From Candidatus Levyibacteriota bacterium (GTDB lineage: Bacteria; Patescibacteriota; Microgenomatia; Levybacterales; UBA12049): a stretch of DNA of 64,000 nucleotides. Under the pieces are notes generated by a model. That model did no database searches. It was not told the origin of the DNA and saw nothing but the letters and a program-made list of their open reading frames with translations. The stretch is taken from contig CAWBPM010000002.1 of the NCBI GenBank assembly GCA_963790825.1, positions 618,815 to 682,814 on the forward strand, given 5' to 3'. Within the stretch, counting starts at the first letter, position 1. The number at the start of each line of letters is the position of its first letter. Made by a program: the position numbers and the translations under genes. Below, in pieces: positions 4,958 through 64,000 of this stretch.

Positions 4958-5083
4958 CCCCTTCCAAAAGGTACTCGCCTTCTATTTTACCTCAAATCGA
5001 CAGCGGTGTAAACAGGAGAGGCTGGAATTGGTTTTAGAAGTTTCACTGCAAATTCTGCTAGATCTTTTTTAGATCCTAACTAA

Positions 5084-5494
5084 TTATCTTTGTTGACTAA
5101 GAGATTTCTGTGGAGATTGTGTAAAGGCTCTTAGCCATTCCTCTTCACTAGTCTTTTCTATAAGAGCTTCTGTTGCCATTGAAATCCTGGAGACAGTTCC
5201 TGCTAGTTTCTCGAAATCATTGGTTTGTAATTGTTTCAGGTTTGGTTCTCCATGAAGAAGAGCCATAAAGCAGTTCATTGGGGTAGGTCGGGTTCCCCCT
5301 CTAGCATTGAATCTTTCTTCGTAAGAAGAGCCATAGAGACATGCTCCATATACCATAAAACTTATTGGTGTACGAACGCCTAACTCAGCCAACACGACGT
5401 TATCACTTGATAGTTGTGCATTGATTTCATTAGGAGACATAGCATTTACTCTTTCCTCAAAAGTAAGCACTCTGAATTGATCTCGCTCTGCCAT
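5084..5494 (-). CDS. hypothetical protein (136 aa)
   Basis: ORF track; no motif recognised. Confidence 0.45.
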   Translation of the reverse strand: MAERDQFRVLTFEERVNAMSPNEINAQLSSDNVVLAELGVRTPISFMVYGACLYGSSYEERFNARGGTRPTPMNCFMALLHGEPNLKQLQTNDFEKLAGTVSRISMATEALIEKTSEEEWLRAFTQSPQKSLSQQR

Positions 5495-5572
5495 ACTTCA
5501 AGAGTATATCAAAAACATAATTAGGTTGCAAACTCAGCGCAATTTATGATTACGATAATATATATAAAGGAT

Positions 5573-5999: not shown

Positions 6000-6892
6000 T
6001 TTTCAAGCACTTTTATAAGTTCTTCCAGGCTTAGTTTCGTCGGCACCATTTTCGGGTTTTTTGGTGTTCCGTTTAACAGCATTTTTTTGCTGACATGCAG
6101 GTACCAGCTAGCATCCGGATCAATTTTTTTCAATTTTTCATAGGCTAATGTTAAATCCAGATTGTCTTTTTCAGGATTTTCTGCCGGACGAAGTTTAATC
6201 CGCACATAGCTTTTTCTCGGATCTTTCCTAATAACCAGATTATATCCCATTTTTTGTGAAAGCTTCAGAACCGAATCGTTAATCGTTTTAAAGCCGATTG
6301 CTTTCCCCCATCTGGTTTGAAAAAGAATACCGTTACCGTCTATTTCCCGTTCTGCCCAAATTCTATTTTCAAATTCATGAACTACACTGTCCAGACAAAC
6401 TTTGCCAAACTCCACATAATATTCATCTTCATCCGGCTTTGCCAGTTTCAACCCTTCCAAAACACCGATAAGTGAAAATTCCTGGTAATCGGCAGTCGGG
6501 TTGTTCCAAAATATTTCGCGAAAATGATCAATCTCCACGACTATCTTGATTACTCTATCTATCGCTTTCATATGTTCAGCTCTTAGTACGTCGCCACTTT
6601 TCGTGATTTCTTCTCTTATATAGTCCCAGGTCCTGCTCGCCCCACAAATCGTCAGGTCCGATGTTTCGTGGTGATCGAGTGGTCCCATTCCCGTATCAAC
6701 ATGCACAATCTCGTCTTTGCCGACTTTTTGCATAATATCGCCCATGTCAAGCCCTTTTACCCGCTCAGATCTAAGTCCTGCTGCAACAAATTCCACCGCA
6801 GCGTTCTCCCATCCGCTAAGATATTTTTTAATGAGCCACACAGATGTTATCGCGTCCCAATCAGGCGACGTGTGAGTAACAATAATTTTCAT
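5993..6892 (-). CDS. DHH family phosphoesterase (NrnA-like nanoRNase / pAp phosphatase)
   Basis: N-terminal IVTHTSPDWDAITS (motif I DxD), HVDTG, and GPLDHHE (DHH motif), followed by a DHHA1-like C-terminal half. Confidence 0.75.
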   Translation of the reverse strand: MKIIVTHTSPDWDAITSVWLIKKYLSGWENAAVEFVAAGLRSERVKGLDMGDIMQKVGKDEIVHVDTGMGPLDHHETSDLTICGASRTWDYIREEITKSGDVLRAEHMKAIDRVIKIVVEIDHFREIFWNNPTADYQEFSLIGVLEGLKLAKPDEDEYYVEFGKVCLDSVVHEFENRIWAEREIDGNGILFQTRWGKAIGFKTINDSVLKLSQKMGYNLVIRKDPRKSYVRIKLRPAENPEKDNLDLTLAYEKLKKIDPDASWYLHVSKKMLLNGTPKNPKMVPTKLSLEELIKVLEKI

Positions 6893-6993
6893 ACTAAAAA
6901 TAGAGTATAGAGTGTTTTTCCTCTGAATTCAATGAGCGAGAGATAATACTTGACAAATTATCAAGAATTACCGATCATAGATAATGAGAGCTT

Positions 6994-7494
6994 ATGGATC
7001 CGAAAGCATTTTCTCATCTTGATCCGAAATTAAAAGCAGCTTATGACCGCGTGATGAATACGGCAACCAAGCCAGCCTCGCCGAGCTTAGACGGACCTGC
7101 TTTGGCTCAACCTTCCACCTTTACATCACAGCCTCCTGTCAATCAGTCGCCACTCGTACCTGGAAACCAAACCCCACCTCCGGCTTTCACTCCTCCTCAA
7201 AATTCTGCTTTTTCTGCTTCTTCTCCTTTTCCTCAGGCAACACAGCCGTCTGTATCTCCTCTAACCTACCAGGTTAACGAAATACCGCAAGCCGAAAAAA
7301 CACTAAGTGCGTTGGCCCAAAGAATGTCTCAGGGCGGTCAAGTTCCCAGCAACAGTCACACTATATCTACTGCAGCAAGACATCAACAAGCTTCAAAAAC
7401 TTTACCGTTTCTGCTTATAGGTGCAGGAGCAGTTTTTCTTATCGCTTATGTCATTTTCTGGATGAAATTTTTCAATCTCCCCCTGCCATTTTAG
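6994..7494 (+). CDS. hypothetical Pro/Ser/Thr/Gln-rich protein with C-terminal transmembrane anchor
   Basis: Low-complexity PxxP-rich central region with a single C-terminal hydrophobic helix (LPFLLIGAGAVFLIAYVIFWM). Possible TTGACA -35 at 6950-6955. Confidence 0.5.
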   Translation: MDPKAFSHLDPKLKAAYDRVMNTATKPASPSLDGPALAQPSTFTSQPPVNQSPLVPGNQTPPPAFTPPQNSAFSASSPFPQATQPSVSPLTYQVNEIPQAEKTLSALAQRMSQGGQVPSNSHTISTAARHQQASKTLPFLLIGAGAVFLIAYVIFWMKFFNLPLPF

Positions 7495-7555
7495 CCAGCA
7501 AATTACCCTTATTATAGTTCATTAGTCGAGTAGGATCAAATGATTTCAAAATCCA

Positions 7556-7996: not shown

Positions 7997-9244
7997 TTAA
8001 GAAGATTTTGCGGCTTGTAATCTCTTTACAACTTCGTCTAAGCTAAGAAGTTCTGCGCCAGCCGCGTTTGATTCGGTTCGCTTTTTCCATTCAATTTTTT
8101 CTTGGGTCTTTAAGCTAATAACCAAACGAACCGGAATTCCGATCAAATCCGCATCGGCAAATTTCTCTCCCGGACCGACTGTTTCCCGATCATCATACAA
8201 AACAGAAATGCCGGCTTTTTGTAGCTCATGATAAACGTTCTCTGCTCTATGTTTCACTATTTCATCATCCAAATTTAAACCAACCAGATGTACTACATAC
8301 GGTGCGACTGCTTCAGGCCAGATAATTCCCTTATCGTCATGAAATACCTCAACTATTGCCCCCAGGAGTCTGGTGAGTCCGATGCCATATGCGCCAAACC
8401 AGGCAAACTGCTCTTTGCCTAAATTATTAGTAAAAGAGACACCCATTTTTTTACTATACTCAATGCCATATTTAAAAATATTTCCTACTTCAATCGCTTT
8501 TTTTGTTTCAATTTCCGGATCTTTTAGTTCTTCCTCGGTCATAATTTCTTTATTTTTCCAAAACTTCCAGCCTTTTTTAAAATAAATTGTGTCTTCTCCG
8601 CTTTCAGATATTACTTGAAATTCATGTGTATGCGAGTTGGTGAAAACTCCGCCCGCAGCTTCGACTACAATTGCCTCCAAATTCATCCTTTTGAATATTT
8701 TCAGATACGCGTCTTTAACTTTCCAGTAGTAATCGTTCATTTCTTCTTCCGTCGCGTGCAGACTATAAAGGTCTTTCATTAAGAATTCCCGCTCCCGTAA
8801 AATGCCGGATTTTGCGCGCAGTTCATTTCTGAATTTAGTTGACATATGGTATAAAAGCAGCGGAAGATCACGATACGTTCTCATATGTTTTCTTGCCACA
8901 TCAAGAAAAATTTCCTCGTGGGTAAATGAAAGTGTAAATTCTTTATCGTTTTTTTTAAGCTTGTACATCACTTCGTCTGCCCGGTCCCACCTTCCCGTTT
9001 CATTCCAAATGTCTTTCGGATGCAGAAGCGGCATAAGCATTTCAGAAGCACCTGTTCTGTTTATTTCTTCGCGAATAATATCCTCGATTTTCCGTTCAAC
9101 AATCCGGCCAAGCGGCAGTAATGTATACGAGCCCGCCATCAATTTATCAATAAATCCACCGCGAAGCAGATACCGCGCATTGATCGCTACTTCGTCTTTT
9201 GGCGCTTCTTTTATGGTTTTCGGGAAGTGATGGGAATACCGCAT
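7997..9244 (-). CDS. proS: proline--tRNA ligase (compact form without the editing-domain insertion)
   Basis: MRYSHHFPKT.KE.P.DE.INARYLLRGGFI...GSYTLLPLG..V..KIEDIIREE, class II motifs, and a C-terminal anticodon-binding domain, 415 aa. Confidence 0.85.
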   Translation of the reverse strand: MRYSHHFPKTIKEAPKDEVAINARYLLRGGFIDKLMAGSYTLLPLGRIVERKIEDIIREEINRTGASEMLMPLLHPKDIWNETGRWDRADEVMYKLKKNDKEFTLSFTHEEIFLDVARKHMRTYRDLPLLLYHMSTKFRNELRAKSGILREREFLMKDLYSLHATEEEMNDYYWKVKDAYLKIFKRMNLEAIVVEAAGGVFTNSHTHEFQVISESGEDTIYFKKGWKFWKNKEIMTEEELKDPEIETKKAIEVGNIFKYGIEYSKKMGVSFTNNLGKEQFAWFGAYGIGLTRLLGAIVEVFHDDKGIIWPEAVAPYVVHLVGLNLDDEIVKHRAENVYHELQKAGISVLYDDRETVGPGEKFADADLIGIPVRLVISLKTQEKIEWKKRTESNAAGAELLSLDEVVKRLQAAKSS

Positions 9245-48441: not shown

Positions 48442-49515
48442 TCAAGACCTTGATTGGGCTGGGGTGATAAGTACCAGTTGAGGAGTTAATGTAGAAGCAT
48501 ACTCCAATGGTGTTTTGTAGTCAAGGGCTTGATGAGGGCGAATGCTGTTGTATTTGACTAACCATTCTGTTAAATCAACATTCGCTTCCGCTATGTCATC
48601 AAGCCCTACCTCTGAAAAATCGAGCCATTCTCTCTGCACTGTATGATTAAATTTTTCAAGACACGGGTTGTCTTTTGGGGTATGTGGACGAGAAAATATT
48701 TGTTGTATTGATAATTGTTCACAGGTATCTGAAAAGTGTTTCGCAAATTCTGATCCATTGTCTGAGTGTATGACTGACAATTTGTTCTCACTGAGGTATC
48801 GTAACCTCCTGAGAAAATCTGCGCCATTTTGTGATGAAGCTGTTGGATACACTCTTGCAAACCCAAGTTTTGTTTTATCATCCAAAGCGGTAAATATTAC
48901 TCTCCTTTGTCCATACCACCAGATAAGGATACTGTCGGTATGCCACAGTCTTCCCGGTTCCTTCATTGTGTGGATACGAATCCGTGGCTGTTTTGTCTTT
49001 CCTACCGTGTAGACTCGCTTCTTTTTCTTCTCTTGAAATAACTTGTGCTTTCGTATGACTCGTTCTATCTTCCAGGTTGTTATCTTCTGGTTATACCTGT
49101 TCTGATAAAGTACTTTCAGTTTTTGTTTACCTAGTTCCATGTTTTCTTTTCGAAGGATAATAATTTGTTTTTCTTCTTTTGCCGTTACCATCCATTCCCG
49201 TACCCTCTTGGGTCGCTTTGATTTCTCCTCTAAACAATATGCATTACTCCTGTCAAACCGTTGTACCCACCGCCTGAGACATTTGCGTGAAATCCCAAAA
49301 TGGAAAGCTGTTGTTGTTATATTCTCTTTCCCAACAGTATAATAGAATGCAATCCACTCCAATCGTAATCTCCCGTCGGAGGATATTCCTTCTTGTTTTG
49401 CCTGATAGCGATAGTAATCCCAGAAGTTCTCTTTTCCTTTTTGTATATCCCTCCATGTTTGGTACGTCCACGGATGGGCTGATACTGGCTTATGTGCTTT
49501 CGTTTTCATAGTCAC
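48442..49515 (-). CDS. IS481-like DDE transposase (HTH + rve integrase core)
   Basis: 357 aa. N-terminal HTH (FGISRKCLRRWVQRF) and DDE core with WHTDS...HSDNGSEF...RPHTPKDNPCLEKFNHTV. Confidence 0.85.
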   Translation of the reverse strand: MTMKTKAHKPVSAHPWTYQTWRDIQKGKENFWDYYRYQAKQEGISSDGRLRLEWIAFYYTVGKENITTTAFHFGISRKCLRRWVQRFDRSNAYCLEEKSKRPKRVREWMVTAKEEKQIIILRKENMELGKQKLKVLYQNRYNQKITTWKIERVIRKHKLFQEKKKKRVYTVGKTKQPRIRIHTMKEPGRLWHTDSILIWWYGQRRVIFTALDDKTKLGFARVYPTASSQNGADFLRRLRYLSENKLSVIHSDNGSEFAKHFSDTCEQLSIQQIFSRPHTPKDNPCLEKFNHTVQREWLDFSEVGLDDIAEANVDLTEWLVKYNSIRPHQALDYKTPLEYASTLTPQLVLITPAQSRS

Positions 49516-50789: not shown

Positions 50790-50850
50790 TACGCATGCTT
50801 TCTAATTTAATTTTGAATTATGAATTTTAAATTTTGAATTTTTTATACTT
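50790..50850. repeat. TRAATTY heptamer tandem element (TAATTT TGAATTA TGAATTT TAAATTT TGAATTT)
   Basis: Lies between the thyA start and the stop of the dcd-like gene. Confidence 0.6.
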
Positions 50851-51382
50851 GCTTTTCTTTTTTCCTCGCCGTTACCCGTCCGCCTTGCCATTGCCCGCGG
50901 TACTGACTGCCTACGCCTTTTATCTCATGGAATATAACATGGACAAAGCGTGCTCCCATTTCGATCTCAACCGTAATCGGTCCTTCATTTTTTAAACCAA
51001 ACGTTAATTCTCCCTGATATCCCGGTTGAATCGGACCTGTCCTGATAAAAATCCCCGACCGGAACGTCGTCGTTCTAGGTAAAATAACTGCTGACAAATT
51101 AAGCGGCAAATTTATTTTCTCAATTGTTTTAACTAAGAAAAAATCACCCGGTTTTATTTTAATACTCTGTTTTTTCTTCGGGTCATATGTTTTAACTGTT
51201 TTTATATCTGCCGTCTGGCGATGCGTTTCACCTAAAAATGCTTTGCCAGAAATTTCATAGACTTCCCCCAAGCGTAAATCAAATCCCGCTCCTTCGGGAT
51301 TGGTAAGCTCCCGTTCCGAAAGATTTTCAACCAGTTTTTGTTTCTTAACCAATGTTAATAATTTCTTAGGTGAAAGTATCAT
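50843..51382 (-). CDS. dCTP deaminase/dUTPase-family protein (short paralog)
   Basis: GFDLRLGEVY...PIQPGYQGELTFGLKNEG (dUTPase-fold motif 3-like). Confidence 0.6.
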   Translation of the reverse strand: MILSPKKLLTLVKKQKLVENLSERELTNPEGAGFDLRLGEVYEISGKAFLGETHRQTADIKTVKTYDPKKKQSIKIKPGDFFLVKTIEKINLPLNLSAVILPRTTTFRSGIFIRTGPIQPGYQGELTFGLKNEGPITVEIEMGARFVHVIFHEIKGVGSQYRGQWQGGRVTARKKEKQV

Positions 51383-52678: not shown

Positions 52679-53440
52679 ATGAGGCTCTTCGCTAAATTGG
52701 TAATCTCGTTTTTTGTTTTTACGTTATTTATTTTTAATCCTCCTAAGATGTTCGCAGTTACTGCTCCCCCTATTTGTAGCGCAGTGACCGCGTTTAATCT
52801 TACCTGTTCTCTTTCGGGTACAGCTACGTTTACAGCTTCTTGGGATTTATCTGCATATGGAGTACCAGCAGCTAGTAATATTTGCAATATTTATGTTTAT
52901 GCTGGCAGCAATGCCCATACTATTAGTCATACGTGTGCTGGCAGCAATGTTAGCATTACGGTTCCTGCTGATAATTCTCCGACTGTTTCAATCTACGTAA
53001 GCAATGGAATTATTGGTGATGTATGTTATAATGCTCCTCAAGGCACCATAAATAATGCTTGTGCTCCTCCCACTGCTACACCAATCCCTGCTCCTACTAC
53101 TCCCCCTGTTAACATTTATGCAGGCTGCGAAGGCAGCGCGGCAGACAACGCGGCTGACGTCTGGAAGCTAGATTGTATTCCTGTTGTCGCAGGACAACTG
53201 GTTAATTATGCTCTCATTTTCCTAGGAATCGTCGCGGTTATATTTATTATCTATGCGGGCTACAAGTTTATTACTTCCCGCGGTGATCCGAAGCAGGTTG
53301 AAGGAGCCAGAAAAATTATTACTTACGTTCTTATCGGCATCACGATTATTTTACTTTCATTCTCTATTATAGCCTTCATTGCATATATTACGGGCGTAAC
53401 ATGTATCGATGGCTTTAGTCTACATGCATGTAACACGTAA
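52679..53440 (+). CDS. secreted Cys-rich protein with TrbC/VirB2-pilin-like C-terminal hydrophobic hairpin
   Basis: Signal peptide, then a 150-aa Cys/Thr/Ala-rich region (10 Cys) with a PTATPIPAPTTPP linker. C-terminal LVNYALIFLGIVAVIFIIYAGYKFITSRG...IITYVLIGITIILL has two TM segments with a short basic loop, as in TrbC/VirB2 pilins. Confidence 0.45.
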   Translation: MRLFAKLVISFFVFTLFIFNPPKMFAVTAPPICSAVTAFNLTCSLSGTATFTASWDLSAYGVPAASNICNIYVYAGSNAHTISHTCAGSNVSITVPADNSPTVSIYVSNGIIGDVCYNAPQGTINNACAPPTATPIPAPTTPPVNIYAGCEGSAADNAADVWKLDCIPVVAGQLVNYALIFLGIVAVIFIIYAGYKFITSRGDPKQVEGARKIITYVLIGITIILLSFSIIAFIAYITGVTCIDGFSLHACNT

Positions 53441-53469: not shown

Positions 53470-54102
53470 TTATTTCCCGTCTTTATAAATCCGTGATTCG
53501 TCGGGACCTTTTTGTCCGATATATTTTGCATTTTTCTTCTTCATGTAAGGAACATCCGCAGGGGTTGACAACTGGTCGAAAGTAAATGAACAAATCCGCA
53601 TTCCGGGGGTGAGCGCCACTGCCATTCTTCCCAAGTTACCAAGTTCCAATACCGGATGCCCATCCCACCCGGGATCGAAAATTGATGCAGTCGAATGCAC
53701 AACAATCCCGAGTCTTCCGAGTGACGATCTGCCTTCAAGTCTGCCGATCAAATCAGAACTGATTATTAACTTTTCAAGCGTTACAGCCAGGACGAAATCC
53801 CCTGGTTGCATTATAAATTGCTCCCCGTCTTTCACTACAATTTCCCGCGTAATCTCATTACTGTGTTCTTTTTTTGTCGGATCAATAAAAGGCATTTTAC
53901 TGTATTCAAATACTCTGAAATGATTACCAAGCCTTAGGTCAATTGAGCAACTCCCGAGCTGCAGCGATAAATCCGGTTTCGGCGTAATAATAATCCTCTT
54001 ACTCTTCAGCGCTTTTTTAATATCTCGGTCCGATAGAATCATGGGTAAAGTGTAACATGTACGTGGTATTTTGGGAAGGGGTAAGCTTGCCCGCATTGAC
54101 AA
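53470..54102 (-). CDS. dcd: dCTP deaminase (likely true start MILSDRDIKK at 54042)
   Basis: MILSDRDIKK...IDLRLGNHFRVF...FIMQPGDFVLA...GRSSLGRLGI..H..AS..DPGW.G, the canonical Dcd pattern. Confidence 0.8.
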   Translation of the reverse strand: MSMRASLPLPKIPRTCYTLPMILSDRDIKKALKSKRIIITPKPDLSLQLGSCSIDLRLGNHFRVFEYSKMPFIDPTKKEHSNEITREIVVKDGEQFIMQPGDFVLAVTLEKLIISSDLIGRLEGRSSLGRLGIVVHSTASIFDPGWDGHPVLELGNLGRMAVALTPGMRICSFTFDQLSTPADVPYMKKKNAKYIGQKGPDESRIYKDGK

Positions 54103-54132
54103 TACTTCGAGGGTTTACTACGCTGTTATTAC

Positions 54133-57100
54133 ATGCAATTTTCCTTGATAAAATTTTATCCAAAAAGCTTGCACGTTTTCCGTATTTTCTCTACTCGATT
54201 TCTCGGAGTTTTTATTGCTTTGCTATTATTTCAAGCTACTAGTCCGGTTCAAAAAGCTTATGCGCAATATGCTGGCAATTTATTACAAAATCCATCGTTT
54301 GATACTACTTCACCTAATTGGCCTTCTCCTTGGTATATGTCTGTTTATCCTGATGCTGCTGCTACGGTAACTCAGGATATGTCAACGTATGTTGATGGAA
54401 ATTCCTCCGCACGAGTCGATATCAATACAGCCAGTCCGACCTTTTGGCATATCCAGCTACTGCAAACCGATGTTCCAATATCTCAAGGCGTTTCTTATAC
54501 AATCACCTTTTGGGCTAAGGCAACAACAGCTCGTACTATCAACGTTGTTGATCAAATGGGACTCTATCCCTATAACTCTTATTTCAGTCAGGATATCGAT
54601 ATCACTACCTCATGGCAACAATATACAATTACATTTACTGCTCCCGTAAATGACTCGCGTTCTCTTTTTACTTTTAACATAGGACTGCAAACCGGTAGTG
54701 TTTGGTTCGATGCTACGTCATTCCACTTTACTCTGCCTGATGATTATTGTTATGGACAAGGTGTCTATTTATATACCAACATAAATTGGACTGGTGCGTG
54801 TGCTAGATTTACTGCTGATACTCCTGATTTAACCAGTAGCATAGGCAACGGCACTGCTCAATCCGTTAGACTTGTAGGTGACTACGCTGCGACATTGTAT
54901 TCGGGTACAAACTATACTGGATCATCAAGCGCAGTTACTTCCGATGTCGCTGATCTTAGTACCACTGATGTTGGTCAAAAAGCTGTTTCTTCATTACAAA
55001 TTGCCGTACCTACTCCGACTCCTACTATACTTCTTGCACCTACAGCTACTCCGAGCGGCACAACTTACTCGATTACCGGAAATGTTTATAATGATCTTAA
55101 TAAAAATGGCGCGAAAGATTTAAGTCCGACATGGCAACAACTTACCAGCACCGTTACTGTAGATTATAACGACAGAACCAGTCTGGGAATTTCTGTTATC
55201 ATGGAAGGCGCATCCGGTACAGATTCGTTTCAAGTAGATGATATTTCTTTACAATTGGACAGCGGCCCAAATCTAATCACCAACCCCGGGTGTGAGGCAG
55301 ATACAAGCGACTGGGCTGGAACGCAAGCAACTCTTTCACAAGATACGACAGATTTTCATTCGGGTAGCGCGTCTTGTAATGTTCAGCAAACTACCGGAGA
55401 TCAATTTTCAATAAGCGACCAACCGGCTACTGTAAGTAATCCTCCGATGGGACAACAATATACAGCTACTGTTTGGGTCCGTACCGATTCATTAAATAAA
55501 CCGGTTTGGCTGTCTATAACAATGTCCGGTGGAGCCAATCCTGACGTAACTACGTATAGCCCAGCATTTGCTATGAACTCTAGTGAACCGAACTACAGCG
55601 GAGGAGCTGTTATTCAGTTATCAGACGGAGAGCAAACGGTTACCGATGCGAATGGAAATTATGCTTTTAATAACGAGCCATCCGGAACATATACGGTATC
55701 GCTTGCCTCGACAAGTATTTATACCCCGACTACATCCTCTTCTCAAACAATTGATCTGACAAGTGGCGACCAAACTGTTAACTTCGGATTGTATTACACC
55801 AGCTATACTTTGGCGGGGAATGTATTCGTCGATACCAATGACGATGGAGTTCAAGACGGAAGCGAAACCGGTTTTCCCGCAGGAACTGTTACCATTGCAG
55901 GTCCTGTATCCAAACAAGTAACTACAGATTCAGCTGGAAATTATTCGATACCTAATCTTCCTACCGGTATTTATATTGTCCAATATGCATTACCGTTTGG
56001 TTATACAACATCCACGACCAATCCGGTTACGATAAGTCTGGTTGCCAATACCATAGTTAATTTCGGACTTTCTCCATATACTCCTGCAGTCCTTACCAAC
56101 TCATGTGGTGCTGCTGCTCCCGAAGCAGATATCATGCTTGTTCTTGATTCTTCCGGTTCAATGGGTGAAGGAAGCAAAATACATGATGCCATAGCAGCTG
56201 CACAAAGTTTCGTTGATACGGTTGCAAGTCAACACCCTGCAAGCCAGGTGGGATTAGTAACATATAGTACCACCGTCCATATTGTAGATCCATTAATGCA
56301 AGACCATGGTGCTAACCAAACAAAATTAGATCATGATTTGGGAACTGCTGTAGCAGACGGTACTACATGCGGTTTATGTGCTATGCAAGAAGCAGTTAAT
56401 CAGCTCGAAAGTGGACACCATGGTAACGATACGAGAGTAATTGTTTTTCTTACTGACGGAATCGAAAACTATTTGCCGGGAGGACATGATCAAGTCCCTC
56501 CGCAAACAGCTCAGGATCCGATTTTGGCTCTGGCAGATCAAGAACATAATGATCACGGAACGAGCTTCTTCACGATAGGACTGGGAACTGATGTTGACGC
56601 AAATTTCCTGCAAAAACTAGCTGACGATACCGAAGCGAAATATTACTTCACTCCTACTTCCGATCAACTAAATTCGATTTATGCCAGTATTTATTATGAA
56701 ATTACTCAGGGTGTCGGCCAAGTCAAGGGAACTGTGTATAAAGATGTTAATTTTAACCGCCGCTTAGATGCAGCTGATCTAGGACTGCCCAGTTGGATTG
56801 CCACCTTAAGCAATGGAACAACCACTTATACGCAAGTGACAGATGTATCCGGAAATTATACTTTCACCGGTATTTGTACCGGCGCATATACCTTGCAGGA
56901 GCAAGCACAACCCGGCTGGTTTCAGGACAGTCCGAGACACCCAAGCAACTATGCCATTAATGTCCTTAACAGTTCAGCCATAACCAAGAAAAACTTTGGT
57001 AATACCCAAGGATATACTGTAGCTGGTTTTGTTTTTGACGATAGAAATAAAAATCAAACTTTCGATTCCGACGAAACAGCATTTACGAGCGGACTTGATA

Positions 57101-58233
57101 TTACATTTACACCTACCAACGGCACTACTTCGACTGCCGGATCAGTGGTATATGATACCACATCCGGACAATACACTGTTCAGGGTTTATTGCCCGGATC
57201 ATACATAATTTCTTACTTAGGGCCTTTACCTGTCCACTATTTCCCTGTCTATCCGGTCGGTGCCCCTTTCCCGTCGTATGTTGTCACTGTCGGTCCCGGC
57301 TGCAGCGTTGACGGCACAACAGGAGGTAGTTGTGATCCTGCAGGTAGTATTTCAGATTTGGATTTCGCAATCAGCGATTCAACTCCCTGGATACAAATAC
57401 GAGGTTTAGACGGCAGATTCGATAATGGTTACGAAGATAAAATTCCTCCCGGTATTACGGCAGCTTGCGGACCATATGAAGCAGTTCCCCAATCTTCAAT
57501 TCCTCCGGCTACTCCCGGAATTATTTTCTCAGGTGACCAGACAAGTTTGTTTGACTCGGGATCATCATCTACTACCGGTTGGGTTGTCGGTGGGCCGACA
57601 TATCCGGAAGTATTTACCCCTAAAACTGCCGGCGTAATGAAAACTTCTTATAATTATCTTCTGAGTCTTGCTCAACAATCGAACGTACCAATTACCGATC
57701 TCTCAACCATTTGCAATCTGAGCAATTGTACTTTGCCTAACGGTCTTTCACACGGAGTTTACCAATCTAACGGTGATCTTACGTTAAATAGCTTTATATT
57801 CCAAGGAAATAGTAATTATGTCATATTGGTAGCTGGAAACTTACATGTTATGGGAAATATCCAAGTAACTTCCGGTAGTACTGCCATTTTTTCTGTTGGT
57901 AAAGATATTATTTTCGATAAAACTATCGGAGATCTTAATCCTATTTGTCCACCGACGTCTTCTCATATCGAAGGCTTATACAGTAGTGATCAGAACATCA
58001 TAATCGACGGTAATGACAATTGCGTGGTTGGTCCGGATAATATGCTAAACGTTCAAGGCGCATTGGTCGCCAATGCCGGTTCCACAGGCGGTTCGTTGCT
58101 TTTGCATAGAGATCTCTGCGGAAATAATTTTATTGGCCCGGCTTTAACTGTTACCCAGCGGCCTGATTTTATTCTAAATGCTCCTGATTTTATTAAGCAG
58201 CAAAACTATTTTTTCCAGGAAGTCGCCCCATAA
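54133..58233 (+). CDS. giant secreted surface protein: CBM4/9-like carbohydrate-binding modules + Cna-B/SdrD-type repeats + von Willebrand factor A domain + C-terminal beta-helix-like region
   Basis: Signal peptide FLGVFIALLLFQATSPVQKAYA. NLLQNPSFDTTSPNWPSPW...ITFWAKATTARTINVV is CBM4/9-like, and a second such module follows (GPNLITNPGCEADTSDWAG...VWVRTD). Repeated GNVYNDLNKNGAKD, GNVFVDTNDDGVQDGSETG and GTVYKDVNFNRRLD segments are SdrD-B/Cna-B-like. The vWA MIDAS motif is IMLVLDSSGSMGE...T...VIVFLTDG. Confidence 0.7.
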   Translation: MQFSLIKFYPKSLHVFRIFSTRFLGVFIALLLFQATSPVQKAYAQYAGNLLQNPSFDTTSPNWPSPWYMSVYPDAAATVTQDMSTYVDGNSSARVDINTASPTFWHIQLLQTDVPISQGVSYTITFWAKATTARTINVVDQMGLYPYNSYFSQDIDITTSWQQYTITFTAPVNDSRSLFTFNIGLQTGSVWFDATSFHFTLPDDYCYGQGVYLYTNINWTGACARFTADTPDLTSSIGNGTAQSVRLVGDYAATLYSGTNYTGSSSAVTSDVADLSTTDVGQKAVSSLQIAVPTPTPTILLAPTATPSGTTYSITGNVYNDLNKNGAKDLSPTWQQLTSTVTVDYNDRTSLGISVIMEGASGTDSFQVDDISLQLDSGPNLITNPGCEADTSDWAGTQATLSQDTTDFHSGSASCNVQQTTGDQFSISDQPATVSNPPMGQQYTATVWVRTDSLNKPVWLSITMSGGANPDVTTYSPAFAMNSSEPNYSGGAVIQLSDGEQTVTDANGNYAFNNEPSGTYTVSLASTSIYTPTTSSSQTIDLTSGDQTVNFGLYYTSYTLAGNVFVDTNDDGVQDGSETGFPAGTVTIAGPVSKQVTTDSAGNYSIPNLPTGIYIVQYALPFGYTTSTTNPVTISLVANTIVNFGLSPYTPAVLTNSCGAAAPEADIMLVLDSSGSMGEGSKIHDAIAAAQSFVDTVASQHPASQVGLVTYSTTVHIVDPLMQDHGANQTKLDHDLGTAVADGTTCGLCAMQEAVNQLESGHHGNDTRVIVFLTDGIENYLPGGHDQVPPQTAQDPILALADQEHNDHGTSFFTIGLGTDVDANFLQKLADDTEAKYYFTPTSDQLNSIYASIYYEITQGVGQVKGTVYKDVNFNRRLDAADLGLPSWIATLSNGTTTYTQVTDVSGNYTFTGICTGAYTLQEQAQPGWFQDSPRHPSNYAINVLNSSAITKKNFGNTQGYTVAGFVFDDRNKNQTFDSDETAFTSGLDITFTPTNGTTSTAGSVVYDTTSGQYTVQGLLPGSYIISYLGPLPVHYFPVYPVGAPFPSYVVTVGPGCSVDGTTGGSCDPAGSISDLDFAISDSTPWIQIRGLDGRFDNGYEDKIPPGITAACGPYEAVPQSSIPPATPGIIFSGDQTSLFDSGSSSTTGWVVGGPTYPEVFTPKTAGVMKTSYNYLLSLAQQSNVPITDLSTICNLSNCTLPNGLSHGVYQSNGDLTLNSFIFQGNSNYVILVAGNLHVMGNIQVTSGSTAIFSVGKDIIFDKTIGDLNPICPPTSSHIEGLYSSDQNIIIDGNDNCVVGPDNMLNVQGALVANAGSTGGSLLLHRDLCGNNFIGPALTVTQRPDFILNAPDFIKQQNYFFQEVAP

Positions 58234-58292
58234 AAAAAGCTTGCCTCTTCCTTATTGACAAGTTTGCCATAGTTTATTACGCTAATGTATAG

Positions 58293-61244
58293 ATGGAAAA
58301 TTCTACCGATCCTGTCGCGCGTATACCACGAAGTAAGGCAAGAATAGTAAGTATACTCTTCTTACTTCTCTTGGTTATTGCTATTCCGTTAACGGTTATT
58401 ACCTTGCAGCACCGTCAGGAAACCAGACAAAGGGCAAGTACTACGTCTATTCCCGCCTTCGTTCAAGAAAATGAAAATAAAATAACTTCCGGAACAACGG
58501 TCAGTACGACCTTTGCCAAACCAAACACTGCAGGTAATCTGATCGCTGTCTATGTGCTTTGGAACAACGCTGGGACAGCTTCGATAAAAGACAGTTTGGG
58601 AAATACCTACACCAGCGCAACTGGCCCTTTGAGTTGGAACAATAACACCTGGAGAGGACAGGTCTTTTACGCCAAAAATATCTTAGGTGGCTCCAACACG
58701 ATTACAGTCACCTTCTCGCAAGGTGTCACTTCTTTTGGCATTATGTATACACATGAGTATTCCGGCCTTGATCCTGCCAATCCTATTGATGTTACCCAGG
58801 GAGCAATTGGTACGTCTTCAGCTATGAGTAGCGGATTGGTAACGACAACCAATGCGAATGATCTTATCTTTGGAGCCGGAGCTTCAAGTGCAGGTATAAC
58901 CGCTGGAGAAAGTGGCTTTACTGTCAGAACAACTGGATATGGCAATATGACAGAAGACGAAGATGTGACTAATACCGGCTCGTATGCCGCAACAGCAACT
59001 CAGAATAGTGTTGCATGGATTATGCAAATGGTTGCTTTTAAAGCAGCTAGCACCACGCTTTCCCCAAGTCCAACTCTCGCCACAGGAACAGCTGGTGTTT
59101 GCAGTACAAATGCACCGGTTGACGTAGTTTTGCTTGTTGATACCTCTGGAAGTATGTCTGAGCCGGCACAATCTGGATCAACAGCAACAAAGATTACACA
59201 ACTAAAACAAGCAGCCACAAGCTTTGTTAACGGTGCTCTTGGACTAGCAAATAATAATTATGAAATAAGTCTTGTATCCTTCACAGATAAAGCAACCATA
59301 CTTTCAGATTTCACCAATAACGTCTCGACCTTAACATCCGACATAAACTCATTACAAGCAACGAACACCACCTGCACAGAATGCGGGGTAGACGCTGCTA
59401 ACCAAGAAATAACCAATCATGGCAGGAGCAATGTAAAAAAGGCTGTCATACTTCTAACCGATGGATTTGCAAACGTAATCGAAAAAACAGCCGGAAATTA
59501 CACAAGTTCAGTTGACCCTGCAAGCTGTACTGCAACTCAAAATAATGATAAAGCTTGTACGCTTGCTGAAACACCAACACTTTCATTAGTAACCACAGGA
59601 CACACTGCAAGCAATACAACATATTTTACAATTGGACTTGGCACAGCCGGAACTACAGTAAATCAAAACTTCCTCCAGCAAATTGCCGACAGCACGACAG
59701 GACAATACTATAACGATCCAACAGGAAACGATTTAACTAGTATCTATACCAATCTCCAAGAGGTCATAGGTCAAGGCGGCATAAGTGGTTTTGTCTTCAA
59801 TGATACCAATGCAAATGGCCAATACGATTCTACCGAAACGAAAGTGACGGGTAGAACTGTTACGCTCTCCTCAAGCGCGAGCGGAACCTCCACACAATCA
59901 ACCGTAACAGATGCGACAGGTGACTATTCGTTCGTTGGGCTATGTAACGGCAATTATACGATAACGGATAGCATTCCCTCAGGCAGCATTATTACCGACC
60001 CCAAGACAAATAACGGCGTATACATTGACACAATTACAAATGATCAAACAATCCCGAATCAAAACTTCGGAGAAGCAATAATTCCGACATCTACACCAAT
60101 ACCCACTCCCCCATCTGCTCCGGTAGTTACAATTAATGGTTGTATCACAGGACCTGTGAGTGGAACGAACAATTTAACCCTTTCCTGGAATGATAGTAAT
60201 GTCTCTTCAGTCAATATAGGGACAGACCCATCATATTCTACCTATTACGCTAAGAATGCTCCAGGAGTATTAAGCACAACAGCTCCCATAGGTTTTTTTG
60301 GGGGTAGCAGTAACGTCTCAGGATTACAACTCGTGCTTAGTCCTAATACCACTTACTATGCTACAGTTTGGGATGGAGTCACCAGTCAGCTAAGTAGTCA
60401 AGCTCCTTTCTCACTTTCTCTTTGCGCCACTCCAACTCCGACGGTAACATTAACACCGACACCAAAGCCGACGAATACACCCACTCCCACTGCGACTCCT
60501 GTACCGACGTCTACCCTAACACCCACACCCCGCCCGACGAATACACCTACTCCAACCCCAACTTTTACTCCTACACCTACTCCAAGACCAACCAGCACTC
60601 CGACACCTATTCCTACCGATACGCCCTTCCCAACCAGTACGCCGGTACCCCTAGCTACTACCCTTAATTTTACAGTGTTCCTCCACGGTATCGGAAACAG
60701 TGGAGATAATGCCAACCCGAATACTTTTTCTTTAAGTAATCACAGCCCGCTTCACCCGGAACGCCCAGCTACTATCGAAGTGTATGATAGTAATAATCAA
60801 CTCGTTAAAAGCACTACGGGTACACTCACGTACAGCAGTAATGCAGGAAATTTCACCGCCAATACTATTAGCCTAGGGACAGCATTTACTACCGGAGATT
60901 ACAATATTAAAATAAAAACAGATCGCTATCTGAAAAAATTAGTGCCGGGAATAGTACACATTACTGCCGGACAAAGTAATCTTGTACCAACGGTAACACT
61001 GGTTGCCGGAGATATTAACGGGGATAATAATTTAAATATCCTTGATTACAATACCTTGCTTGATTGCGGCTATGGAGCGTTTACTCCGCTTCCCATGACT
61101 GATCCGAACTCTCTTTATAACAGTGCTTCCTGTCAATCTCACCAGCCGTATGTGGCCAATGCTGATCTTAACGACGACGGAACTGTGGACTATACTGACT
61201 TCAATTTATTTGTCCGCGAGTTATCTGTACAAAATGGAGATTAA
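58293..61244 (+). CDS. membrane-anchored surface protein: lectin-like beta-sandwich + vWA + SdrD-B repeat + Pro/Thr linker + conserved beta module + C-terminal dockerin-type double EF-hand
   Basis: N-terminal TM helix [21 protein letters not shown]. vWA MIDAS motif [13 protein letters not shown]...[37 protein letters not shown] is SdrD-B-like. The (PT)n linker spans 60420-60660. The C-terminus [20 protein letters not shown]...[22 protein letters not shown] matches the dockerin calcium-binding loop pattern D.N.DG....D..L twice. Confidence 0.7.
60420..60660. repeat. Pro/Thr-linker coding repeats ([10 protein letters not shown]...)
   Basis: Degenerate tandem ACNCCNAC-type codon repeats. They generate spurious antisense ORFs at 60398-60715 and 60422-60667. 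Confidence 0.8.
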
Positions 61245-62559
61245 TAAAAAAAAAATTATTCACAAAGATGTATTCATAGGTTTGATTTTGGGACTTCTGG
61301 TTATTAGTATTCCCTTAACTGTTTTTATTTTGCAAAAATCACAGGAGAGCCGGTCTCGTGCTACTGCTGCTACGACCCTTTCTTTTATGCCCGCTTCTAC
61401 CCAGACCAGTCCGCTTCAGTTTACCGTGAATGATAGTTTTATACTTAATCCGACAATTAATCCCGGCACCAATTTAGTCACTTTGGTAAAATTGGAAATT
61501 ACCTATGATCCGTCTAAACTTGCACCGAACGGCGCGAATTCATTCGCGCCGAATACTGCAGCATTTCCGGTTATTACGCAACAGCCCATTTATTCCCCTG
61601 GGGTTATTCAAGTAATTATGGAAATCGGTAGCAACCCCACTAATGCAATTCAGACAACAACCAGCCTGGGTACGATTAGTTTTAATGCGCTTTCTCCAAC
61701 AACTTCGGGAACTCCGACACAGGTAGTTTATACAACTACTTCTGAAGTGCTTTCACTTGGCAGTAATGACCAAGCTGCAGAAAATGTGCTTTCTTCAACA
61801 ACTCCTGCTTTTATCGAAATCAATTCACCAATTCCGACTCCCACTAATACCCCTGTTCCTACATTAACTCCGACACCAACATTACTTCCGACGAATACTC
61901 CCACCCCAACACCTACCAGTACGCCGATTCCGACGGATACGCCTTTCCCGACCAGTACTCCGGTACCGTTGTCCACAGTCCTTAACTTCACTGTCTTTCT
62001 CCACGGCATCGGCAACAGCGGAGACAACGCTAACCCGAATACTTTTTCTTTAAGTAATCACAATCCGCTACATCCGGAGCGTAATCTCTCAGTTGAGATT
62101 TATGATAAGACAAATCAGTTTGTTTCTTCGTCTTCAGGAACTCTCGTGTTTGACGCGAATGCAGGAAACTTTAGCGCAAGTATTGATATGGGGACTGCTT
62201 TTTTGACAGGTGATTATAATATTTACATCAAATCAGATAAATATCTCAAGAAACTTATTCCCGGAATTCAAAAAATAACAGCCGGACAAACAAATACTGC
62301 AGTAGTAACAACGCTTATTGCCGGAGATATCAATGACGATAATACGCTTGATATTCTTGATTATAATGCCCTTTTAGATTGCGGCTATGGAGAAATAACC
62401 TCGCTTCCCATGACAGATCCGAATTCCGTATTTAATAGCGCGATGTGCCAAGCACACCAACCGTATACTATTAATACAGATTTGAATGATGACGGGATTA
62501 TTGATGCAACCGACTTTAATCTTTTTATTCGTGAACTATCTGTACAAAATGGAGATTAA
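61234..62559 (+). CDS. membrane-anchored cohesin-like + Pro/Thr linker + conserved beta module + dockerin protein (paralog 2)
   Basis: Start taken at [12 protein letters not shown] (ATG 61234-61236, overlapping the stop of the upstream gene). TM helix [21 protein letters not shown]. The N-terminal domain [39 protein letters not shown]...[10 protein letters not shown] resembles cohesin strands, including the YDP..L motif. The C-terminal 190 aa are about 85% DNA-identical to 60640-61244, including the dockerin repeats [20 protein letters not shown] and [22 protein letters not shown]. Confidence 0.65.
61835..61975. repeat. Pro/Thr-linker coding repeats in paralog 2
   Basis: [45 protein letters not shown]; spurious antisense ORF at 61728-62027. 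Confidence 0.8.
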
Positions 62560-62575
62560 TAAAAAACACTAAACT

Positions 62576-64000
62576 ATGAGAGGCTTTTTAAGTTCTAAAA
62601 GAAATGCATCTTTGGCCTTACTGACGCTTCTACTTCTTATCAGTTTGCCGGTAACCCTAATCGTCTTGCAAAAACCTCAGGAAGATAGAAGTCATGCGCA
62701 GGCTTCAACCTTGCTTTCGTTTAGTCCCGCTTCAACACAGACTTCTCCTACGCAAGTAAGTCTTAATGATTCGGTCAGTTTACAGCCGATGCTAGACCCG
62801 GGAAATAATTTAGTCTCGATAGTAAAATTAGAAATTGATTATGATCCTACTAAGCTTGCGCCTGATGGTACAAATGCTTTTACCCCAAACACGACATCTT
62901 TCCCCACTGTTCTCGAAGGGCCGATATATGACTCAGGTAAAATGCAGGTCCTCATATCTGTTGGTTCAGACCCGACCAAAGCCATAAGTACGCCAACTTC
63001 TCTCGGAACAATAAAACTAAAAGCAATTTCTCCAACAAATAATGCTACAACAGAAGTAACATATAATACAAATGTCGTCCAAATACTTTCTGTCGCCTCG
63101 TCCGACCAGGCAGCTGAGAATGTTTTTTCCTCAGCCACTCCTGCTTATATTTCAATAAACTCTTCTTCAACGCCAACGATAACAACAATGCCAACCTCAA
63201 CCAATGTAAAAATAATTTCTCCGGCGCTGAATGATACTATATGCATGGGTAAGCCCTATACTATTACCTGGCAAGGAACGACAGACATACAAGGCATCAT
63301 GTTTCAAATAGTCTCCCCGCAACCAAACAGTTTTGCTGTACCCATATCATCGGTTTTAGCCATAAATGGTCAGCCTGTTTCCGGAAAAAGCGGGTATATC
63401 CAAGACTCATACATCTGGACCGTCGGCCAGTTGCTCAGTAATCAGTTTGGTGCACTCGCCCCAGGTTTCGGCTATAAGCTTGAGGCGTTGGCATATGTCG
63501 GTAACTCTGATACAGTTTTTGATAGCGATTTATTTAGTATCTCTAATAATAGCAATTGCAGCAACACACCAACTCTTGTTCCAACAAGTACCCCTATACC
63601 TAGTACTACTTTAAGCCTAGCTATATTTCTACACGGCGTTGGCTTAAGTGGAGATAATGTAAACGAAAACAATTCAGATCTTAGCAATAAAATGCCCCTG
63701 CACCCTGAACGTAACCTAATAGTAGAGTTCACAAATGACCAAAACAAGCTCTTGGCGACAGCTAATACGACAATTACCTATAATAGTGATCTTGGCGATT
63801 TTATCGGTACTGTTCCAGTACCCAACGTTGTTGGGAACGGATCATACAACATAACGGTAAAAACCGACAAGTATCTCAGAAAACTTGTTTCGGGTATTCA
63901 AAATCTAAGGTTATATCAAATGAATACTTTACCCAAAATTACACTCACTGCCGGAGATGTTAATGGCGATAATAAGCTAGATCTGCTTGACTATAATATA
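62576..64000 (+). CDS. membrane-anchored cohesin-like + beta module + dockerin protein (paralog 3), 3' end beyond window
   Basis: Not in the ORF track because there is no stop in the window. I translated it without stops from ATG 62576 to 63999: MRGFLSSKRNASLALLTLLLLISLPVTLIVLQKPQ...[52 protein letters not shown]... It is collinear with paralog 2. Later segments are LAIFLHGVGLSGDNVNENNSDLSNKMPLHPERN, ...ITVKTDKYLRKLVSGIQ, and ...TAGDVNGDNKLDLLDYNI, the first dockerin loop. Confidence 0.65.
   Translation, partial: MRGFLSSKRNASLALLTLLLLISLPVTLIVLQKPQEDRSHAQASTLLSFSPASTQTSPTQVSLNDSVSLQPMLDPGNNLVSIVKLEIDYDPTKLAPDGTNAFTPNTTSFPTVLEGPIYDSGKMQVLISVGSDPTKAISTPTSLGTIKLKAISPTNNATTEVTYNTNVVQILSVASSDQAAENVFSSATPAYISINSSSTPTITTMPTSTNVKIISPALNDTICMGKPYTITWQGTTDIQGIMFQIVSPQPNSFAVPISSVLAINGQPVSGKSGYIQDSYIWTVGQLLSNQFGALAPGFGYKLEALAYVGNSDTVFDSDLFSISNNSNCSNTPTLVPTSTPIPSTTLSLAIFLHGVGLSGDNVNENNSDLSNKMPLHPERNLIVEFTNDQNKLLATANTTITYNSDLGDFIGTVPVPNVVGNGSYNITVKTDKYLRKLVSGIQNLRLYQMNTLPKITLTAGDVNGDNKLDLLDYNI

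Follow-up and report, generated by a model that had tools for sequence, protein, structure and literature searches.

Tandem genes for predicted cohesin and X-module-dockerin surface proteins of a Candidatus Levyibacteriota bacterium share a putative old, lineage-specific copy of their 3' ends

Near the 3' end of a 64,000-nt stretch of a Candidatus Levyibacteriota genome (assembly GCA_963790825.1, contig CAWBPM010000002.1, positions 618,815 to 682,814 of the forward strand), hereafter the window, lie four co-oriented genes of the + strand, g0 to g3, defined by open reading frame (ORF) listing and translation of the 64 kb. g1, g2 and g3 end in related modules, and the 3' ends of g1 and g2 are the most alike. 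Fold prediction and profile comparison suggest that the module consists of an X-module joined to a type-II-like dockerin (XDoc); phylogeny and codon comparisons suggest that its coding sequence was copied between tandem neighbours within this lineage, and the event is old. An earlier note on this DNA had ascribed the similarity to recent tandem duplication or ongoing gene conversion.

The first of the three module genes, g1 (58293-61244; 983 aa, equal to database protein P0015 in length, a match of length alone), encodes in order an N-terminal anchor or signal, a VWA domain (aa 277-486), an SdrD_B domain (aa 497-579), a Pro/Thr-rich linker (60426-60662, with imperfect 30/66-nt periodicity) and a C-terminal XDoc (60663-61244; 193 aa plus stop; beta-sandwich X-module and dockerin with two predicted Ca2+ loops) that scores 295.5 bits against the hidden Markov model (HMM) of the module family; two further, unassigned domains lie before the VWA domain and between SdrD_B and the linker. 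The product of g2 (61234-62559; 441 aa, 100% identical to the independent gene call P0014) consists of a transmembrane or signal helix (aa 11-33), a cohesin domain (aa 45-205; 61366-61848), a Pro/Thr linker (aa 206-249) and an XDoc (aa 250-441; 61981-62559, 192 aa plus stop) with predicted Ca2+ loops of 12 residues each at 62326-62361 and 62479-62514. g3 runs from 62576 to 64000 and continues past the window end (at least 475 aa): an N-terminal anchor or signal is followed by a cohesin (62702-63187), a weakly matched Kre9/KNH-like Ig domain (approximately 63179-63619) and the start of a diverged XDoc (63611-64000), whose first 130 aa lie inside the window and score 138 bits over HMM positions 1-130. 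The Pro/Thr linker that precedes the XDoc is disordered. By these domain models, g2 and g3 would be one-cohesin mini-scaffoldins. All three proteins have a common N-terminal anchor, a hydrophobic helix followed by ...I(P/S)LTV..LQ..QE.R(S/Q)RA (58344-58436, 61309-61347 and 62606-62698, all +), which within the window is confined to them and which is also found in related loci; it may serve specifically in cleavage or sorting. In line with the earlier note, these are surface proteins.

The module is a 192-aa C-terminal unit preceded by the Pro/Thr linker and is modelled by AlphaFold2 (AF2), with a predicted local distance difference test (pLDDT) score of 79.6, as a helical dockerin preceded by a beta-sandwich (residues 1-115). 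Its family profile matches, weakly but specifically, the CipA XDoc in the Protein Data Bank (PDB; 2b59_B, E 2.7e-5), 3kcp_A (E 1.1e-4) and 5g5d_B (E 2.7e-4), these matches spanning the end of the X-module and the dockerin; the fold match over the whole module is to the CipA XDoc, and Pfam Dockerin_1 is matched at 27.1-27.2 bits against a cutoff of 22.9. Across 142 modules, the two loop-helix F-hand motifs have near-invariant Ca2+ ligand positions 1, 3, 5 and 12: loop position 1 is Asp in 138/142 and 142/142 modules, and position 12 in 142/142 and 141/142. An Ig-like beta-sandwich X-module sits directly N-terminal of the dockerin, as in the XDoc dyad. This anatomy agrees with the published description of the XDoc, in which an Ig-like X-module of approximately 98 aa, resembling carboxypeptidase D domain II, is followed by two Ca2+ F-hand loop-helix motifs (PMC5141474). 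The shared module is thus best modelled as an X-module plus a type-II-like dockerin. Its inter-helix linker of approximately 39 residues contains two short predicted helices and an invariant pair of cysteines (Cys134 and Cys156, module positions) that are probably disulfide-bridged; in topology it agrees with the linker of classical XDocs, which is shorter. At the start of the X-module lies a near-invariant segment, LHGIGxxGDNxNP...NPLHP (g2 61981-62080, +, module residues 7-32, with the equivalent region in g1 and g3), in which G9, G11, G14, D15 and N18 are kept in at least 131 of the 142 modules; the loop, for which model confidence is low (pLDDT 56-72), could provide an additional site for binding a metal or ligand.

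A strictly C-terminal position on diverse passengers would also suit a secretion or sorting signal, such as the C-terminal domain (CTD) recognised by the type IX secretion system (T9SS), rather than a docking module, and the beta-sandwich part does weakly match Por_Secre_tail (17.2 bits, E 0.004) and gingipain CTDs (E 0.05-0.16). These matches are confined to the Ig-like half and fall under the curated cutoffs of the T9SS sorting-domain profiles (TIGR04183, 17.2 bits versus 23; PF18962, 13.4 bits versus 27); an NCBIfam scan of g1-g3 and the module found nothing above cutoffs, yielding weak VWA matches and a sub-threshold T9SS tail. The other half of the module is a predicted dockerin with invariant Ca2+ ligands, the best match to the whole fold is an XDoc, cohesins are encoded by the same genes and arrays, and neither an outer membrane nor a T9SS is known from Patescibacteria. 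A sorting signal in place of a docking module is therefore very improbable.

The putative partners of the XDoc are predicted to adopt the nine-stranded jelly-roll beta-sandwich of cohesins (PF00963). Pfam Cohesin is matched by g2 at 25.2 bits (cutoff 24.1) and by g3 at 19.5 bits, below the cutoff; in an alignment of the cohesin-domain family built from related loci, 18 of the 36 members match PF00963 (best E 1.6e-8), with no match to any other family. The cohesin profile reaches E 0.09 against the PDB, and the g2 cohesin domain gave no match in a word-indexed search for homologues. In the window, proteins with an XDoc carry only VWA, SdrD_B or cohesin domains, and g0 has a CBM4_9 domain without a dockerin; with no carbohydrate-active enzyme (CAZyme) as cargo, the system is not a cellulosome. 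XDoc passengers in relatives include VWA, CHRD and cohesin domains. The CHRD domain, with or without a cohesin, is joined to an XDoc in P0019, P0023 and P0030, and the cargo repertoire is therefore wider than VWA and cohesin.

The earlier note judged by eye that 60640-61244 and 61960-62559 align base for base at about 85% identity. That the two segments are homologous is clear: self-alignment of 54-64 kb by BLASTN, the check proposed in that note, returns a single high-scoring segment pair (HSP; 60572-61251 versus 61896-62566, E 9e-84), and global alignment of the two segments matches 430 of 614 columns, against a mean of 52% and a maximum of 55% identity in shuffled controls (n=100). The identity was overestimated, however, being 70.3% over the 684 columns of the HSP and 72.8% or 70.0% in the global alignment without or with its 23 gap columns; 84-87% is reached only in the first 90 nt or so (about 60670-60760). 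Each copy (60572-61251 in g1 and 61896-62566 in g2, both +) comprises the distal linker, the XDoc, the stop codon and 7 nt of 3' flank, the similarity beginning within the Pro/Thr linker, where a 16-residue stretch is identical, and stopping 7 nt beyond the stop codon; the g2 copy would represent the donor type. Over the 130 module codons of g3 that lie in the window, its module is 46-48% (aa) and 56-57% (nt) identical to those of g1 and g2, so that the third paralogue is indeed the more diverged, as had been noted. The array had also been flagged as a hotspot for assembly collapse. Nothing positive points to mis-assembly of the array or junction, a concern raised since repeats can mislead assemblers; copies that are 70% identical with longest exact runs of about 31 nt, intact ORFs throughout, a 751-kb contig, and the same architecture and synteny in more than 40 independent genomes, where such arrays are normal, leave an artefact with a next to negligible chance.

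At the gene junctions, the window contains exactly two copies of the 18-nt sequence ATGGAGATTAATAAAAAA (61234 and 62549; 0.02 expected), each within a 30-nt exact match, TATCTGTACAAAATGGAGATTAATAAAAAA. The first copy of the match (61222-61251, +) encodes ...LSVQNGD* at the end of g1 and holds in its +1 frame the ATG at 61234, which is the true start of g2, so that the g1 stop overlaps the g2 start. In the second copy (62537-62566, +), the ATG at 62549 opens a 7-codon ORF, MEINKKH* (62549-62572). The duplicated start-like junction of the earlier note is thus real as sequence, but it serves as a start for g2 only and yields a stub before g3. The g3 start at 62576 lies 27 nt 3' of the stub ATG in the same frame, stub and g3 ATG being separated by one TAA and one Thr codon; the shared frame could be a coincidence (1 in 3), or the stub could be what is left of a longer N-terminus, or else a mini-ORF for coupling. 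The 30-nt match corresponds for the most part to the family-wide conserved C-terminus RELSVQNGD*, written in codons common in this genome. Two ideas about the junction did not hold up well. The embedded ATG was rejected as a conserved coupling device: the C-terminal codons of relatives vary (AAC GGx and others), and there the next gene begins 3-20 nt after the stop codon. Capture of a start codon by g2 was weakened: orthologous cohesin genes already begin MNTPNKKKIF..., compared with MEINKKKII... in g2, which makes the Lys/A-run of the junction an original part of the g2 5' end.

An exhaustive profile search places the module in 2,656 clusters at 50% identity (1,030 at E <=1e-30), where it invariably forms the very C-terminal end of the protein (186-1,440 aa), and a word-indexed search for the module returned 13 relatives only. 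Scanning species-representative genomes yielded 160 relatives in 73 loci, nearly all from Candidatus Levyibacteriota or Patescibacteria metagenome-assembled genomes (MAGs), and mapping of the module HMM on those loci indicates that tandem arrays of two to four adjacent module genes are the norm; the array architecture recurs in more than 40 related genomes. Many contigs with this array and synteny (loci L016, L018, L019, L021, L023-L027 and others) are deposited under other names, among them 'uncultured Gammaproteobacteria', Methylomirabilota, Acidiferrales, Limnocylindrales, Sulfotelmatobacter and Saccharimonadales, probably through mislabelling or mis-binning. In the literature we found only passing mentions of cohesin and dockerin domains in the candidate phyla radiation (CPR) and no account of this family of XDocs or of its arrays. 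Proteomics of Shapirobacterales is reported to show expression of cohesin and dockerin proteins (10.1101/2021.08.21.457207), and a protein with a dockerin domain is reported to be essential in a Saccharibacterium (PMC10633639).

Directly upstream of the array, in the window and in more than 30 relatives, are thyA and two dCTP-deaminase (DCD) genes, all on the - strand and 71-87% identical in aa sequence between the window and the relatives; the locus is orthologous to the conserved Levybacteria arrays with thyA-DCD-DCD synteny. In those relatives, a cohesin-XDoc gene of approximately 400 aa comes directly after DCD; in the window the two are separated by the roughly 7 kb of g0 and g1. A neighbour-joining (NJ) tree of the 142 modules contains a clade ending in ...RELSVQNGD (A-type), which is borne by cohesin proteins in all 31 A-clade orthologues, and those that retain upstream sequence adjoin DCD. 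VWA proteins mostly bear another clade, the B-type XDoc ending in ...STQPGQ/E. g1 is a VWA protein within the A-type clade, the sole one there, and is sister to g2.

The modules of g1 and g2 are mutual nearest neighbours at 73% aa identity, neither exceeding 59% to any of the 142 locus modules and 156 database representatives. Compared with the 31 orthologous modules they are equidistant (dN, the nonsynonymous divergence, 0.39 and 0.41), with proportions of synonymous differences (pS) of 0.81-0.84 and same-codon fractions of 0.39-0.43. Together with the placement of g1 in the tree, these distances argue that a lineage-specific copy of the 3' end between tandem neighbours did occur. One could suppose instead that there was no such copy and that two anciently separate modules were kept alike by selection for, or co-evolution with, the same cohesin partner. 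Strong purifying selection (dN/dS about 0.12), the coincidence of the most similar stretches with protein-conserved motifs, and the shuffling of module types among passenger types elsewhere are all compatible with that account. It would leave a sister pair at 73% among some 300 modules at no more than 59%, the equal distances to the orthologues and a pS of 0.69, below that to the orthologues, to be explained, along with a similarity that reaches into the non-structural linker and past the stop codon, and is accordingly improbable. The N-terminal anchor of g1 also best matches the cohesin-A class, over short segments, which is only suggestive that g1 may be a duplicated cohesin-A gene with a replaced passenger.

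Substitutions date the copy as old. Over 192 codons the g1 and g2 modules differ with pS 0.69, dS (synonymous divergence) of about 1.9 and dN 0.23; because synonymous sites are near saturation, the copy event is old, and the dN/dS of about 0.12 indicates that purifying selection has maintained both copies ever since. Comparison of dN 0.23 with the 0.39-0.41 to the orthologues puts the g1-g2 split at roughly half the depth of that from the other sampled species, the value exceeding half of that range. The recent or ongoing homogenisation envisaged in the earlier note would be consistent with the mutual nearest-neighbour relationship, the 30-nt exact match at the gene ends and the fresh conversion in relatives described below, as well as with a run test that finds one stretch in which 11 successive codons are identical (60714-60749; p about 0.04 by permutation) and with a same-codon fraction of 0.53 between g1 and g2 versus 0.41 expected; the run and the codon sharing are at most a faint residual tract signal. 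Against this, the two copies agree at 70% and not at 85%; the 30-nt match is largely accounted for by the family-wide C-terminus; pS lies between 0.49 and 1.02 across all 30-codon windows of the pair; and the most similar stretch combines pN (the proportion of nonsynonymous differences) of 0.01 with pS 0.67, so that its high local identity reflects protein conservation and not a conversion tract. Copying between neighbours thus survives from the earlier proposal, its recency does not, and we regard recent or continuing conversion of this pair as decidedly unlikely.

Truly recent events in the family look otherwise. On the complete Candidatus Levybacteria chromosome OY970292.1 (locus L059), two adjacent XDoc genes (pair at 6475-7519 versus 8088-9132) have a 3' segment of 894 nt that is 100% identical and reaches 18 nt past the stop; the identical 3' end covers Cys-rich repeats, linker, XDoc and flank, while identity between the 5' halves is about 55%. 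The pair records a fresh event of gene conversion or partial duplication, and a third copy at this locus is 79-80% identical. At locus L038, 512 nt inside the XDoc are 94% identical between a gene called VWA-type by an iterative VWA profile and the next gene, which encodes a cohesin (5049-5557 versus 6208-6716), a younger parallel of the g1/g2 pair. The window pair (70%) ranks 8th of the 93 module pairs found within arrays, for which the median nt identity is 60%. Thus, 3'-end copying or gene conversion between adjacent genes is demonstrably active elsewhere in the family.

A promoter-like motif, TTGACA-N17-TACGCT, occurs twice in the window (0.07 expected), 9 nt 5' of the g1 ATG (58255-58283, +) and 8 nt 5' of the g0 ATG (54096-54124, +). 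A motif search of the 64 kb found it before neither g2 nor g3; g1-g2-g3 are therefore probably co-transcribed as one unit. The 8-9 nt spacing to the ATG would imply near-leaderless mRNAs for g0 and g1, and TTGACA-N17-TAYGCTRAAT-like strings are present 3' of XDoc gene stop codons in loci L010, L012, L015, L024 and L025. A generic scan for sigma-70 promoters and terminators was at chance (25 found versus 24.4 expected, and 8 versus 8.4, respectively). g0 (54133-58233, +; 1366 aa) encodes a secreted protein with CBM4_9, weak beta/gamma-crystallin-like, four SdrD_B, VWA and SpaA domains and a C-terminal region of approximately 400 aa without a domain match; in contrast to its neighbours g1-g3, it lacks an XDoc, and its signal peptide is of the ordinary kind. 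Farther upstream, an ORF with the integrase core domains rve and rve_3 (48442-49515, -), likely an insertion sequence (IS) element or transposase insertion, adjoins thyA inside an otherwise syntenic nucleotide-metabolism block, and an ORF of 253 aa (52679-53440, +) matches T4SS_pilin at 30 bits (cutoff 26.6) between the dCTP-deaminase paralogues at 50843-51382 and 53470-54102 (both -).

Taken together, we consider it probable that the repeat encodes an XDoc, that it goes back to an old lineage-specific copy of a 3' end, and that it serves Ca2+-dependent cohesin-XDoc assembly of adhesins at the cell surface. The upstream VWA gene g1 would have received by copying, or kept, a 3' segment of approximately 680 nt of the type found in the cohesin gene, one that comprises the distal linker, the XDoc, the stop codon and the 7-nt flank. 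Breakpoints would lie in the low-complexity linker and in the A-run, the 3' one probably at A-run microhomology, and as a consequence of such a copy the g2 start codon would now sit inside the end of g1. The proteins would be exported and tethered by their common N-terminal anchor, the Pro/Thr linker would extend the XDoc outward, and the XDoc would bind cohesins of neighbouring array proteins in a Ca2+-dependent manner, by analogy with the binding of the CipA XDoc to type II cohesins. The likely result, on the same analogy, is assembly on the cell surface of a non-cellulosomal chain or complex on which VWA/SdrD-type adhesins are displayed. Should A-type and B-type XDocs bind different cohesins, the A-type XDoc on g1 would re-target its adhesin to a cohesin that recognises the A-type.

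Several observations weigh against this account. The direction of the copy, from g2 type to g1, and its breakpoints are deduced from phylogeny, and SVQNG-type modules are also found on a few VWA proteins elsewhere (P0020, L036, L038, L039), from which it follows that module shuffling is recurrent in the family. The 7-nt identity after the stop (TAAAAAA) could be a chance product of A-rich sequence. The sample contains no close relative, so one old event is not separable from concerted evolution that has since stopped. Matches to solved XDocs (E 2.7e-5) and cohesins (E 0.09) are weak, and the assignments come mainly from predicted folds. The predicted dockerin also departs from the classical type: its inter-helix linker has approximately 39 residues with the invariant Cys pair, compared with approximately 23 residues and a small helix in classical XDocs, and the LHGIGxxGDNxNP...NPLHP segment is absent from CipA X-modules.

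The closest known counterpart is the XDoc dyad of ScaA/CipA and CipB of Clostridium thermocellum and of ScaA of Acetivibrio cellulolyticus (PDB 2b59, 3kcp, 5g5d, 5k39 and 4u3s), although the module is only 17-18% identical to these. The passengers differ as well, being VWA/SdrD adhesin-type domains or a single cohesin here and nine-cohesin scaffoldins with CBM3 in the CipA type. The proteins of this CPR bacterium bear N-terminal anchors, no SLH anchoring scaffoldins being seen. Non-cellulosomal cohesin-dockerin pairs are known from the GH33/GH84 toxin complexes of C. perfringens (2vo8, 2w1n), and a non-cellulosomal cohesin from Archaeoglobus fulgidus (2xdh), but the dockerins there have no preceding X-module and are not encoded in tandem cohesin-XDoc gene arrays. 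Arrangement of adjacent co-oriented genes with different passengers and a common 3' module resembles surface-protein paralogue arrays homogenised by conversion, as do the fresh conversion tracts of relatives L059 and L038; unlike active arrays, the module pair in the window, at 70% nt identity with saturated synonymous sites, is the fossil of an event.

The repeat itself is an ordinary old partial gene duplication of no consequence for assembly quality. Its module, however, gives a predicted fold and a likely function to a large, publicly unnamed family of 2,656 clusters at 50% identity. As a more speculative extension, to which we attach well under even odds, one-cohesin proteins that end in an XDoc, being self-complementary members of a phylum-wide and as yet unannotated Levyibacteriota 'surface-ome', might polymerise head-to-tail into Ca2+-dependent chains or networks, anchored by the common N-terminal motif and showing VWA, SdrD and CHRD adhesins for attachment to host cells or substrates, with recurrent 3'-end copying (examples at 100%, 94%, 80%, 75% and 70% identity) re-wiring the pairing of adhesins and scaffolds. 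Ranging from 100% to 70% identity, the graded series of 3'-end copies is an example of domain shuffling through gene conversion among surface-protein genes arranged in arrays. A CPR phylum with tiny genomes appears to invest in tandem cohesin-XDoc arrays with adhesin-type cargo, not cellulases, which bears on how episymbiotic or ultra-small bacteria may build attachment structures.

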